NCBI RefSeq assembly: GCF_003334405.1
Contig: NZ_QOWM01000003.1
Direction: 5' to 3' (one strand)
Length of the DNA: 64,000 bases
Source: Escherichia coli
Lineage (GTDB): Bacteria > Pseudomonadota > Gammaproteobacteria > Enterobacterales > Enterobacteriaceae
Position 1 is the stretch's first letter, and each line of letters starts with the position of its first letter. Below, piece by piece: positions 11,234 to 63,448 of the stretch. A program made the translations under genes and the position numbers. The notes beneath the pieces were generated by a model. That model was not told where the DNA came from and ran no database searches. It saw nothing but the letters and a program-made list of their open reading frames with translations.

Positions 11234-12068
<835 letters not shown>

Positions 12069-15983: not shown

Positions 15984-16082
15984 CCTGATGCGCTATGCTT
16001 ATCAGGCCTACATAGTCCCTGCAATATATTGAATTAGCAAGGTTTTGTAGGCCGGATAAGGCGTTCACGCCGCATCCGGCAG
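15984..16082. repeat. REP elements (two copies) between torZ and cmoB
   Basis: gcctgatgcgctatgcttatcaggcctaca and gtaggccggataaggcgttcacgccgcatccggcag. Confidence 0.7.
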
Positions 16083-24357: not shown

Positions 24358-24465
24358 TGAATATGTAATATTAAAATATTTGCTTCCAATATAACCTGTA
24401 GAATAAATTATACTGTGCCATTTTTCAGTTCATCGAGACACCTCGCAAGTTTTCTTCATCCTTCG

Positions 24466-26309: not shown

Positions 26310-27095
26310 TTAGCTGGCCTGCTTTTTCATCATACTGAGAATAAATAACAGTGCCGCACATAGCACCACCGACGGACCCGCCGGCGTATCGTAAACCGCG
26401 GAAAAGGTTAAACCGCCAGTCACTGCCACCATCCCCACCAAAACAGCGACACCAGCCATCTGTTCCGGCGTGCGGGCAAAGCGACGCGCAGTAGCAGCAG
26501 GAATAATCAGCAACGAAGTAATAATCAACGCACCGACAAATTTCATCGCTACACCAATCGTCAATGCCGTCACCAGCATCAACAACAATTTCACTCGCTG
26601 TAATTTCACACCATCAACAAACGCCAGATCCGGGCTTATCGTCATTGACAGCAAATTGCGCCATTGCCAGAACAAAATAGCCACCACGATGACCACGCCA
26701 ATCGCAATAGAGATGAGATCTTCTGGCGTCACTGCCAGCAAATCACCGAACAGGTAAGCCATCAAATCAACACGAATATTAGACATCAGACTCACGACCA
26801 CCAGGCCCAGCGACAGGGCACTGTGCGCCATAATCCCTAATAACGTGTCGATCGCCAGCTGTGGACGCTTCTCCAGCCATACCAGACCGCCCGCCAGCAG
26901 CAGCGTAACGGCAATCACCGCATAGAATGGATTCACGTCCAGCAACAAACCAAACGCGACGCCAAGTAATGAGGCATGAGCCAGCGTATCACCGAAATAA
27001 GACATACGACGCCAGACTACAAACGAACCCAGCGGACCCGCGGCACAGGCGAGCATGATCCCGGCTAACCAACCGGGAAATAATAATTCAATCAT
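26310..27095 (-). CDS. znuB: Zinc ABC transporter permease ZnuB (261 aa)
   Basis: 261-aa polytopic membrane [43 protein letters not shown]. Confidence 0.95.
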
Positions 27096-27847
27096 GAGCG
27101 ATCATTTCCCCGACGCAAAACAATTCGTCCCTGTAAATCGTGACGATGGTTATGATGATGGCGATAGATACCCAGTTGTTCAGCACCACGAGGACCAAAC
27201 ATTGAAATAAACTCCGGATGCAGGGAAACAACTTCCGGTGTGCCGGAACAACAAATGTGGTGATTCAGGCACAGCACTTCATCGGTTTTTGCCATCACCA
27301 GATGCAGATCGTGAGAAACCATTAAAACGCCACAATCCAGTTCACGACGCAGTTGGTCAATAAGGTCATATAACGCCACCTGGCCATTTACATCCACGCC
27401 TTGAGTGGGTTCATCCAGCACTAATAATTGCGGGCGATTTAACAATGCTCGCGCTAATAGTACACGCTGCGTTTCGCCACCAGAGAGCTTTTGCATCGGT
27501 GCGTTAATCAGGTGCCCGGCCTGGACACGTTTCAGTGCAGGCAAAATATCTTCTTTATGTGTACCAGGGCGTAAGCGTAAAAAACGGTTTACGGTCAGTG
27601 GCAACGTGGTGTCGAGATACAGCTTCTGCGGTACATAGCCGATGCGCAGTTTTCCGTTGCGCTTGATAACCCCTTCATCGGGTGTTACCAGCCCGAGCAC
27701 TACCCGTACCAGTGTCGACTTACCTGCGCCATTTGGCCCAAGTAAAGTCAAAATTTTTCCAGGTTTAAGTTCCAGCGACACATCAGAGAGGACGCGGCGT
27801 TGGCCAAAAGAAACCGAGACATTTTCCAGGGAAACCAGACTTGTCAT
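27092..27847 (-). CDS. znuC: Zinc ABC transporter ATP-binding protein ZnuC (251 aa)
   Basis: 251-aa ORF with Walker [10 protein letters not shown] and ABC signature LSGGETQR; 4-nt overlap with znuB. Confidence 0.95.
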
Positions 27848-27871
27848 GTTAATTTTAGTCTTGCAGTAGTC

Positions 27872-27896
27872 ATGAAATGTTATAATATCACACTTC
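27872..27896. promoter_or_regulatory. Zur box in the divergent znuA / znuCB promoter region
   Basis: tgaaatgttataatatcacacttc, an AT-rich palindrome resembling the Zur operator GAAATGTTATAnTATAACATTTC. Confidence 0.65.
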
Positions 27897-27925
27897 TCAT
27901 ATTCATTACGATTATTGGTCGCATT

Positions 27926-28858
27926 ATGTTACATAAAAAAACGCTTCTTTTCGCAGCATTATCCGCCGCTCTCTGGGGAGGTGCAACACAGGCCGCAGAT
28001 GCCGCCGTTGTCGCTTCGCTTAAACCCGTTGGGTTCATCGCTTCTGCCATTGCTGATGGGGTAACAGAAACAGAGGTTTTACTTCCTGACGGCGCTTCAG
28101 AACATGATTATTCACTGCGCCCATCGGATGTAAAACGCTTACAGAACGCGGACTTAGTCGTTTGGGTTGGCCCGGAGATGGAAGCGTTTATGCAAAAACC
28201 GGTAAGCAAATTACCAGGAGCGAAGCAGGTAACGATTGCGCAGCTTGAAGATGTGAAACCGCTACTGATGAAAAGTATTCACGGCGATGATGATGATCAC
28301 GACCACGCGGAAAAAAGTGACGAAGATCACCATCACGGCGATTTCAACATGCATCTTTGGCTTTCCCCAGAGATAGCGCGGGCTACAGCGGTTGCAATCC
28401 ATGGAAAATTAGTGGAACTTATGCCGCAAAGTCGAGCCAAACTTGACGCCAACCTGAAGGATTTTGAGGCACAATTAGCCTCAACCGAAACGCAGGTTGG
28501 TAACGAGCTCGCGCCGCTCAAGGGGAAAGGTTATTTCGTTTTTCACGATGCTTACGGCTATTTCGAAAAACAGTTTGGACTGACACCGCTTGGTCATTTT
28601 ACCGTTAACCCTGAGATTCAACCTGGCGCGCAGCGTTTACATGAAATAAGAACACAGTTGGTTGAGCAAAAAGCAACCTGCGTTTTTGCTGAGCCACAGT
28701 TCAGGCCAGCGGTCGTTGAGAGCGTCGCACGAGGGACATCCGTTCGTATGGGAACGTTGGATCCCCTGGGGACGAATATCAAACTGGGTAAAACAAGCTA
28801 TTCAGAATTCCTGAGTCAATTAGCCAACCAGTATGCGAGCTGCCTGAAAGGAGATTAA
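27926..28858 (+). CDS. znuA: Periplasmic zinc-binding protein ZnuA (310 aa)
   Basis: ORF 27800..28858; start placed at ATG 27926 ([23 protein letters not shown]); His/Asp-rich loop [19 protein letters not shown]. Confidence 0.93.
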
Positions 28859-28873
28859 TGAGGAAGTGATTAC

Positions 28874-30196
28874 GTGCAACAGATAGCCCGCTCTGTCGCC
28901 CTGGCGTTTAATAATTTACCGCGACCACACCGCGTTATGTTGGGGTCGCTCACCGTTCTTACTCTGGCCGTCGCTGTCTGGCGGCCTTATGTTTATCACC
29001 GTGATGCCACGCCAATTGTCAAAACCATTGAGCTGGAACAGAACGAAATTCGTTCGCTCTTACCTGAAGCCAGTGAGCCGATTGATCAAGCTGCACAAGA
29101 AGATGAAGCCATTCCCCAGGACGAACTGGATGACAAAATCGCCGGTGAAGCGGGCGTGCATGAATATGTTGTTTCCACTGGCGATACGCTAAGCAGCATT
29201 CTCAATCAGTATGGTATTGATATGGGTGATATCACCCAACTGGCTGCGGCCGACAAAGAATTGCGTAACCTGAAAATCGGTCAACAACTCTCCTGGACAT
29301 TAACCGCGGACGGCGAACTGCAGCGCCTCACCTGGGAAGTGTCTCGTCGTGAAACCCGAACCTATGACCGTACTGCCGCTAACGGTTTTAAAATGACCAG
29401 CGAAATGCAGCAAGGAGAGTGGGTTAACAATCTGCTGAAAGGTACCGTCGGGGGAAGCTTTGTTGCCAGCGCCAGAAACGCCGGTTTAACCAGCGCCGAA
29501 GTGAGCGCAGTGATTAAAGCCATGCAGTGGCAAATGGATTTCCGCAAACTGAAAAAAGGCGATGAATTTGCGGTGTTAATGTCTCGAGAAATGCTTGATG
29601 GTAAACGTGAGCAAAGCCAGCTGCTGGGCGTACGTTTGCGTTCAGAAGGTAAAGATTATTACGCTATCCGCGCTGAAGATGGCAAATTCTACGATCGTAA
29701 CGGTACTGGTCTGGCGAAAGGATTCTTGCGATTCCCGACGGCGAAACAGTTCCGTATCTCGTCTAACTTTAACCCGCGTCGTACTAATCCGGTGACCGGT
29801 CGCGTTGCACCACACAGAGGTGTTGATTTCGCCATGCCGCAGGGTACGCCAGTGCTTTCAGTGGGTGACGGTGAAGTGGTGGTTGCCAAACGCAGTGGCG
29901 CAGCAGGTTATTATGTGGCTATTCGTCATGGTCGCAGCTACACCACGCGTTATATGCACTTGCGCAAGATTCTGGTGAAACCGGGACAGAAGGTGAAACG
30001 TGGCGACCGTATCGCGCTTTCCGGTAATACCGGACGTTCAACCGGGCCGCATCTGCACTATGAAGTATGGATAAACCAGCAGGCCGTAAACCCGCTGACG
30101 GCAAAACTGCCGCGTACCGAAGGGCTGACCGGCTCCGATCGTCGCGAATTCCTGGCGCAGGCCAAAGAGATTGTGCCGCAGCTACGGTTTGATTAA
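28874..30196 (+). CDS. mepM: Murein DD-endopeptidase MepM (YebA), LysM + M23 peptidase (440 aa), GTG start
   Basis: 440-aa ORF; M23 peptidase motifs HRGVDFA and GPHLHYEV. Confidence 0.92.
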
Positions 30197-30211: not shown

Positions 30212-30242
30212 AGCCGGTACGCAGTCAGTACCGGCTTTTTTT
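30212..30242 (+). terminator. Intrinsic terminator after mepM
   Basis: agccggtac-gcagtca-gtaccggc followed by ttttttt. Confidence 0.7.
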
Positions 30243-30315
30243 ATTTGGTGCGGGGCAAGTTGCGCCGCTACACTATCACCAGATTGATTTTTGCCTTATC
30301 CGAAACTGGAAAAGC

Positions 30316-47215: not shown

Positions 47216-47440
47216 AACATTTCAGCTGATGACCACCACGCTTTTTATTGACCATTTTGCACGCAAACTGGAAAACCTGGCGTCGTCATCTATTCTTAAA
47301 GGGCAAGGCAACTAAGCCTGCATTAATGCCAACTTTTAGCGCACGGCTCTCTCCCAAGAGCCATTTCCCTGGACCGAATACAGGAATCGTGTTCGGTCTC
47401 TTTTTATCTGTTAAAAGCCAGAAGCATTTCCTTCGCTGAC
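47172..47440 (-). ncRNA. ryeA: Antisense sRNA RyeA (SraC) overlapping sdsR; boundaries uncertain
   Basis: Established knowledge that RyeA is transcribed opposite to and fully overlaps SdsR in this intergenic region; boundaries inferred from the bidirectional terminator at 47171..47215. Confidence 0.35.
47303..47405 (+). ncRNA. sdsR: sRNA SdsR (RyeB), RpoS-dependent Hfq-binding sRNA; ends approximate
   Basis: gcaaggcaactaagcctgcattaatgccaacttttagcgcacggctctctcccaagagccatttccctggaccgaatacaggaatcgtgttcggtctcttttt matches the SdsR sequence as I recall it, including the terminal hairpin plus U-run; yebY-pphA intergenic location. Confidence 0.6.
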
Positions 47441-62248: not shown

Positions 62249-62917
62249 TCCTTCCTCAATCTTGAGTAACCCCGTCGTTGAAGGGTTACTCAATTCATCC
62301 TGATTATACGCACTGTCATGGTGCAACTGCTTCAAATTAAAACTCTGGTCTGACTTCAAATAATTATCATATTATTTATTTGCGTAACGGGATATCAGAA
62401 AAAGATATTTACCCCATTAATTTATTAGGATGTTTACATCGGATTTGTGATTAAGCGTGGTATTATTTATTAGCGAAACGTTTCTCTCTTGATTTTTTTG
62501 CTCATTCATCAATTTTTCTTATTTTAAATTTACAATCCCTTTGGGGATTGACTTCTCTTTAGGGTAATTAATAGCCGTTAACTGACTGTTTTATGAGAAA
62601 AAGTGATATAACTTTTTATTCATTGCATAGCAAAAAATGTGATATTGCACGCACTATGTAATAACTTCTCCCACTGGCCTGGAACAACTGAACTTATTGA
62701 ACTATGTTAGAAAATACGCCAGTTTAAGTATCTGCCTGAACTGGCAAGGTTAAGCACAATGATATATCGGCGCGTATTCCGTTGCATAAGTGTGCAAAAA
62801 AAGTGGAAGACGTATCGAGATTTGTGCGTCTGATCGAGACATGTTTAAAAATGGCTTGCCATAATTAACGTTGTATGTGATAACAGATTTCGGGTTAAAC
62901 GAGGTACAGTTCTGTTT

Positions 62918-63061
62918 ATGTGTGGCATTTTCAGTAAAGAAGTCCTGAGTAAACACGTTGACGTTGAATACCGCTTCTCTGCCGAGCCTTATATTGGTGC
63001 CTCATGCAGTAATGTGTCAGTTTTATCTATGTTATGCCTGCGGGCGAAGAAAACAATCTAA
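62918..63061 (+). CDS. yobF: Small protein YobF (47 aa), co-transcribed with cspC; not in the ORF track
   Basis: Manual translation from ATG 62918: [47 protein letters not shown] then TAA, 12 nt upstream of cspC. Confidence 0.85.
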
Positions 63062-63073
63062 GGAATTTTTCAA

Positions 63074-63283
63074 ATGGCAAAGATTAAAGGTCAGGTTAAG
63101 TGGTTCAACGAGTCTAAAGGTTTTGGCTTCATTACTCCGGCTGATGGCAGCAAAGATGTGTTCGTACACTTCTCCGCTATCCAGGGTAATGGCTTCAAAA
63201 CTCTGGCTGAAGGTCAGAACGTTGAGTTCGAAATTCAGGACGGCCAGAAAGGTCCGGCAGCTGTTAACGTAACAGCTATCTGA
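63074..63283 (+). CDS. cspC: Cold-shock-domain protein CspC (69 aa)
   Basis: 69-aa [72 protein letters not shown]. Confidence 0.97.
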
Positions 63284-63328
63284 TCGAATCCACTGATCTG
63301 AAGTGTGAATACGCTTCAATCTCGCTAT

Positions 63329-63355
63329 AAAGCCTCGTCGAATGCGAGGCTTTTT
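63329..63355 (+). terminator. Intrinsic terminator after cspC
   Basis: aaagcctcg-tcgaatg-cgaggc followed by ttttt. Confidence 0.75.
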
Positions 63356-63448
63356 ACTATGCTTTATCTTCGCTCCTGGCGTTCGGATATTTGCCCGCCG
63401 CGTGATTCGCGTTACACTTGCGGCCTTTAGTATCCTGCCGGAGTTGTC

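Follow-up and report, generated by a model that had tools for sequence, protein, structure and literature searches.

For femtomolar zinc sensing, and for the acquisition of zinc in the course of infection, the circuit of Zur and the ZnuABC importer is the reference system. The closest described counterpart of the site treated here is the PznuABC operator of E. coli K-12, reportedly the subject of work by Patzer and Hantke in 2000 and by Outten and O'Halloran in 2001.

The structure of this control region bound to its regulator is available, as the oligonucleotides listed in Table S2 of Gilston 2014 (PMC4219657) were crystallised as a (Zur2)2-DNA complex (PDB 4MTD/4MTE). Eight purines (G7, A11', A12, A15, A16', G19', A20, and G24') are contacted by Arg65 and Tyr45 of Zur, and the central bases of Zur sites contribute most of the binding energy (PMC4219657). 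Two Zur dimers have been reported to bind the znu operator cooperatively, with a Kd-app of 8.2e-18 M^2, and znuC to be repressed 6.6-fold. Published evidence for zinc-dependent Zur binding on the identical sequence comprises the crystal structure, EMSA, and in vivo repression; the znuA and znuCB promoters are likewise known to be both active in vivo, with RNA polymerase binding prevented by Zn-Zur. Throughout this text, values for binding, cooperativity, and fold repression, as well as the properties of the ZnuA loop, are taken from the literature.

Three other E. coli operators, those of zinT, ykgM (L31p), and pliG, share the two-dyad motif RNNNYRNNRYNNYRNNNY and its central TATA with the znu site and fit the structure-based 20-mer definition of the Zur box at 0–1 mismatch. 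In contrast to zinT and ykgM, the znu operator is bound by Zur about 150–300 times more weakly, and repression is about 7-fold instead of 560–980-fold, a modest effect explained by the znu operator being among the weaker Zur sites. Among these four sites, it is also the only one that serves two divergent promoters. In Y. pestis, footprinting and primer extension set the orthologous box over mapped -10 elements (Li et al. 2009, PMC2706843). The divergent znuA/znuCB layout is shared between the two species, with the box AATGTTATAATATTACGCT at -49 to -31 of znuA in Y. pestis and AATGTTATAATATCACACT at -50 to -32 in E. coli, but the Y. pestis box has T where the E. coli core has C (the position of 27889). 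Y. pestis also has a second, box-less footprint region, of which we found no report in E. coli.

Here, we compare with these systems a site found in a 64-kb window, the term we use for the whole stretch of E. coli DNA that was analysed. With a probability of roughly 97%, this site is the operator through which Zur controls the bidirectional znuA/znuCB promoter of E. coli, accompanied by a His/Asp-rich loop in ZnuA; no observation speaks against this reading. Both operator and loop are already known in full molecular detail, including crystal structures, and the case serves mainly as a positive control, in which a real operator and a functional loop were recognisable from raw sequence. The result also yields a compact cross-species operator footprint. 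Our additions are modest: an invariant 16-bp core with drifting arms, an operator that coincides with two opposed extended -10 motifs, and the probable inclusion of mepM in the Zur-controlled unit.

Locus and gene neighbourhood

The region between 27600 and 28200 has the same sequence as in E. coli K-12 MG1655 (100% identity) and was recovered at 95% identity or more in every complete E. coli genome of the collection (5,426/5,426), and a 35-mer around the Zur box was found exactly in 5,127 of these 5,426 genomes. One of the 5,428 places at which the znuC/znuA control region occurred is plasmid-borne, representing a second copy in one E. coli genome.

The RefSeq gene list of the matching record contains ruvA, ruvB, znuB, znuC, znuA, mepM, lpxM, and pykA. 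The preliminary description had placed ZnuA at 27926–28858, which was confirmed, the product being 310 aa long. Given that the cognate ATPase and permease are encoded beside znuA and that both passed their equivalog models (Table 1), we assign ZnuA to a ZnuABC importer. The spacer between znuC and znuA measures 78 bp (27848–27925) and has a G+C content of 29%, compared to 51% across the window. A 352-aa, TTG-initiated in-frame extension of the znuA open reading frame (27800–28858) was rejected in favor of the annotated ATG at 27926, as it would cross the operator into znuC and is therefore a mechanical artefact.

No tRNA genes were present in the 64-kb window. At gathering score, Rfam matches to known E. 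coli RNAs were obtained for MicL sRNA (11761–12068, plus strand), the RyeA/SraC and SdsR/RyeB pair (47265–47409, both strands), a cspA-type thermoregulator leader (62898–63358, plus strand), and ES036 sRNA (16004–16046, minus strand).

Table 1. Features of the znu control region and adjoining genes, in window coordinates; scores are NCBIfam bits against the model cut-off.
Feature	Coordinates	Strand	Basis
znuB, permease, 4-nt overlap with znuC	26310–27095	-	NF007089 (equivalog), 533 vs 284; annotation
znuC, importer ATPase, first gene of the leftward Zur-controlled unit	27092–27847	-	ATG 27847; NF007090 (equivalog), 536 vs 306; annotation
TTGCA block, possible -35-like element of the znuA promoter	27861–27865		Conserved 95–100% in 77 distinct sequences
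31-bp znuA/znuCB control-region duplex co-crystallised with two Zur dimers (PDB 4MTD/4MTE)	27867–27897		Oligonucleotide match
Zur box, structure-based 20-mer, two overlapping dyads, centre TA/TA 27882/27883	27873–27892		Exact TGWNAYRWTATAWYRTNWCA match
Zur box, 23-bp gamma-proteobacterial consensus, pseudo-palindrome about 27885	27874–27896		2 mismatches to GAAATGTTATANTATAACATTTC
Invariant 16-bp core ATGTTATAATATCACA	27877–27892		Identical in 80/81 Enterobacteriaceae sequences, distinct species
Extended -10 TGTTATAAT, candidate -10 of the znuA(-mepM) promoter	27878–27886	+	Pattern TGnTAnnnT; assignment inferred
Extended -10 TGATATTAT, candidate -10 of the znuCB promoter	27882–27890	-	Minus-strand pattern; assignment inferred
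znuA, periplasmic zinc-binding protein of the ZnuABC importer	27926–28858	+	310 aa, ATG 27926; NF007091 (equivalog), 523 vs 268; RefSeq annotation
His/Asp-rich flexible loop of ZnuA, residues 116–138	28271–28339	+	Sequence; disordered in crystal
mepM (yebA), zinc-dependent murein DD-endopeptidase	28874–30196	+	NF008652 (equivalog), 892 vs 341; annotation
Intrinsic-terminator-like hairpin, then T-run TTTTTTTATTT	30212–30246	+	9-bp stem, 6 G-C pairs

The Zur operator and its contacts

The preliminary description had reported a palindromic Zur operator at 27872–27896, between the divergent znuA and znuC starts. The sequence, tgaaatgttataatatcacacttc, is indeed present between the two starts, inside the spacer, and begins at 27873, one base later than proposed, the earlier start having included an extra A. 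It is palindromic in an approximate sense: in the 23-mer at 27874–27896, 9 of the 11 pairs about 27885 are self-complementary, and palindromy of at least nine pairs was reached by only 11 of the ~64,000 23-mers in the window. A generic inverted-repeat finder returned nothing beyond short sub-palindromes, and palindromy was therefore scored directly.

Motif searches supported the assignment to Zur. The structure-based 20-mer TGWNAYRWTATAWYRTNWCA had one exact match in the 64 kb, with no match of any kind in 100 shuffles and no second site in the window when two mismatches were allowed. The 23-bp consensus, GAAATGTTATA-N-TATAACATTTC, was matched at 20 of its 22 specified positions, and none of 100 window shuffles contained a match to GAAATGTTATANTATAACATTTC at three or fewer mismatches. 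Additionally, a symmetrised Zur matrix was built from the zinT, ykgM, and pliG operators alone, located in NC_000913.3, leaving out the znu site. In the matrix scan that the preliminary description had proposed as a check, the znu site ranked first in the window with 24.4 bits, compared to 17.1 bits for the runner-up and 25.9–30.3 bits for the training sites. That description had named a poor match to the Zur consensus as the finding that would count against an operator; the match is good, and the sequence is the very DNA co-crystallised with Zur. The site has the two-dimer motif TGWNAYRWTATAWYRTNWCA/RNNNYRNNRYNNYRNNNY, in which each of the eight contacted positions is a purine, and a core-promoter position between znuC and znuA with one extended -10 motif per strand. 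The matrix runner-up, ATATGTAATATTAAAATATTTGCTTC (24361–24386), is an AT-rich stretch ~150 bp upstream of ruvA that does not match the 20-mer pattern even when two mismatches are allowed and probably arose by chance.

Fur and Zur boxes are alike AT-rich inverted repeats bound by homologous proteins, which would allow the operator to serve another Fur-family regulator, such as Fur itself, instead of Zur. We consider this extremely improbable, given that the 19-bp Fur consensus GATAATGATAATCATTATC is matched within the spacer with no fewer than six mismatches, at 27898–27916, off the box, and that Zur sites are reported to differ from Fur sites by the central TATA, which Tyr45 contacts. With 6 of 19 positions mismatched at best, and this away from the box, we rejected the operator as a Fur box.

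The crystallised DNA is another of four independent lines of evidence for Zur, beside the pattern scans, the matrix, and the phylogenetic footprint. The 33-nt oligonucleotide 31mer2bpOH-r (TAGTCATGAAATGTTATAATATCACACTTCTCA; PMC4219657) has an exact and unique match in the window at 27867–27899, its partner strand running from 27897 to 27867, and the E. coli K-12 PznuABC operator and the window are therefore base-for-base identical over the crystallised oligonucleotide, with no difference. We then mapped the published contacts using a numbering that starts at the first base of the partner strand (27897, minus strand). Contacts G7, A11', A12, and A15 correspond to 27891 (minus), 27887 (plus), 27886 (minus), and 27883 (minus), and A16', G19', A20, and G24' to 27882 (plus), 27879 (plus), 27878 (minus), and 27874 (plus), each with the correct base on the correct strand. 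The eight-contact pattern is compatible with two mirror-image registers about 27885, of which the one at 27879–27896 was rejected, as the numbering of the crystal oligonucleotide gives 27874–27891 on the minus strand. Given that this numbering selects 27874–27891, the complex has its centre at TA/TA (27882/27883). Rather than a simple palindrome centred on 27885, the functional unit is a pair of overlapping dyads, occupied by two Zur dimers.

Conservation across Enterobacteriaceae

The footprint sample consisted of one genome per species and comprised 80 Enterobacteriaceae loci with ZnuA 75–99% identical, giving 81 sequences together with the window. In all 80 loci, znuC was divergent from znuA across a spacer of 77–79 bp. 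The 16-bp core (Table 1) carried a mean of 1.99 bits per column, compared to 1.37 elsewhere in the spacer and 1.47 and 1.68 in the adjoining coding DNA, and was the longest invariant run of the aligned region. Its sole departure from palindromy, T27881 opposite C27889, is itself invariant.

The outer arms (27873–27876 and 27893–27896) vary between genera. The outermost contact, G24' (27874), is not conserved outside Escherichia, and the full 20-mer pattern was satisfied by only 6 of the 81 sequences, all Escherichia-type, which indicates that published E. coli Zur-box definitions are over-specified at their ends. A frozen core with drifting arms would extend this to the family as a whole, for which both the 20-mer and the 23-mer definitions would specify too much at the ends, consistent with the dominance of central bases in the binding energy (PMC4219657).

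A contig labelled 'Chryseobacterium sp. 18061' carried a znuA locus of Enterobacteriaceae type: its ZnuA shares 82% identity with the E. coli protein, znuC is divergent, and the operator core is unchanged. The sequence suggests that this assembly is mislabelled or contaminated.

Promoters overlapping the operator

A sigma-70 scan of the spacer returned no canonical -35/-10 pair, as expected from a scan that needs a recognisable -35 hexamer, and promoter assignment consequently rests on the extended -10 motifs and on the analogy with Y. pestis. On these grounds, the -10 elements of both E. coli promoters would be the two opposed extended -10 motifs in the core. A candidate -35 hexamer for znuA, TTGCAG, lies 16 bp from TAATAT or 14 bp from TATAAT. 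Two invariant blocks, TTGCA (27861–27865) and ACGA (27908–27911), are placed roughly symmetrically on either side of the Zur box. Both lie where weak -35-like elements would be expected and may play this part for the two promoters, or they may be contacted by another factor.

The presence of both TGTTATAAT and TGATATTAT in the invariant core, along with the invariance of the non-palindromic C27889 that provides the G of the minus-strand TG, raises the question of whether the conserved AT-rich pseudo-palindrome consists of overlapping -10 elements only, with conservation reflecting promoter function and the resemblance to a Zur box being incidental. Such a reading has next to no probability. 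Zur has been crystallised on identical DNA, to which each of the eight base contacts can be assigned; a matrix from three unrelated Zur operators ranks the znu site first in 64 kb; the 16-bp conserved block exceeds the needs of two -10 hexamers; and published EMSA, footprint, and structure data already refute it. We therefore retain the Zur operator as the explanation of the site, with the candidate -10 elements lying within it.

A further layer has been proposed for this DNA. According to PMC11618457 (2024), partial ZntR motifs lie over all four E. coli Zur boxes, and apo-ZntR speeds Zur unbinding on 31-bp znuCB/znuA promoter DNA and in cells. The operator could accordingly be a composite site in which a Zur box is combined with a partial ZntR sequence and apo-ZntR hastens Zur unbinding ('through-DNA'), which would add to the Zur operator and replace nothing in it. 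However, the same study infers that ZntR alone does not bind the partial sites, and we regard the composite site as a tentative and rather unlikely addition. Chances appear evenly balanced that the core bears a triple constraint, from a two-dyad Zur site, an opposed pair of extended -10 motifs, and possibly a partial ZntR site.

The Zur operator works as follows. Under sufficiency of cytoplasmic zinc, two Zn-loaded Zur dimers bind cooperatively to opposite faces of the DNA at the overlapping dyads of 27874–27891, each monomer reading two purines via Arg65 and Tyr45. Given that both candidate -10 elements lie within the 16-bp core, neither promoter should be accessible to RNA polymerase while Zur is bound, and a single bound complex would thus switch off the whole importer. 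When zinc falls, Zur sheds its regulatory zinc and leaves the DNA, allowing both units to be transcribed.

Extent of the rightward unit

The GTG start of mepM lies 15 nt past the znuA stop and is preceded by a GAGGAAG Shine-Dalgarno sequence, a junction kept in 80 species, and no terminator was found between znuA and mepM. The conserved 15-nt junction and the lack of an intervening terminator suggest that mepM is probably co-transcribed with znuA on the Zur-controlled transcript, in which case bound Zur would probably silence it too. The strong terminator-like hairpin that follows mepM (Table 1) is the likely end of the rightward unit. Murphy et al. 2019 (PMC6381278) reported that mepM/yebA adjoins znuA across enterobacteria and that zinc starvation induces it in E. 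coli; their study also leaves possible a Zur-independent internal promoter for mepM.

ZnuA and its His/Asp-rich loop

ZnuA of the window was identical (100%, 310 aa) to PDB 2OGW, the outcome of the comparison with structurally characterised homologues that the preliminary description had suggested, and closely matched the remaining ZnuA structures from E. coli and Salmonella. With the E. coli and Salmonella enterica structures (2OGW, 2OSV, 2PRS, 2PS0, 2PS3, 2PS9, 2XQV, 2XY4, 2XH8, and 4BBP), it shares the cluster A-I solute-binding fold, the 3His+Glu zinc site, and a long His-rich loop. Zinc coordination in ZnuA is by 3His+Glu (PMC9175090), and the primary ligands Glu59, His60, His143, and His207 are all present in the window ZnuA; among 81 orthologues, the three histidines are invariant and Glu59 is found in 80.

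The preliminary description had also pointed to a 19-residue His/Asp-rich peptide at about 28278–28345, typical of zinc-scavenging ZnuA proteins. The peptide corresponds to ZnuA residues 121–139 (28286–28342) and thus falls inside that range, and residues 119–139 contain seven His and ten Asp/Glu. Its description as typical agrees with two sources: Chandra et al. 2007 (PMC1867320) described a 'charged loop of 22 residues (116-138)' without an ordered structure in the crystal, and a review (PMC9175090) considers a long His-rich loop the hallmark of zinc-specific ZnuA of Gram-negative bacteria. Ni-NTA retains native ZnuA through its His and acidic stretches (PMC1867320), and the loop offers secondary zinc sites and, in the Salmonella complex, is inserted into ZinT, its exact role being debated (PMC9175090). 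The His/Asp-rich stretch is a flexible periplasmic loop beside the primary Glu59/His60/His143/His207 site, which supplies secondary zinc ligands and serves as the docking element for the accessory protein ZinT.

The loop was found in 81 of 81 orthologues, with 21–29 residues, 6–9 His, and 9–13 Asp+Glu. Its composition is conserved, its sequence and length vary, and the segment HHHG(D/E)(F/Y)N(M/L)H, which runs into the ligand His143, is well conserved. Differences in loop length account for the orthologue size classes of 310, 314, 318, and 319 aa. At 21 aa, the Escherichia loop is the shortest of those sampled (median 25, maximum 29); most other Enterobacteriaceae have 4 residues more.

The loop-coding DNA also contains the best Fur-consensus matches of the entire window (five mismatches; 28286–28304, beginning GATGATGATGATCAC), which are explained by the repetition of Asp and His codons and do not represent a regulatory site.
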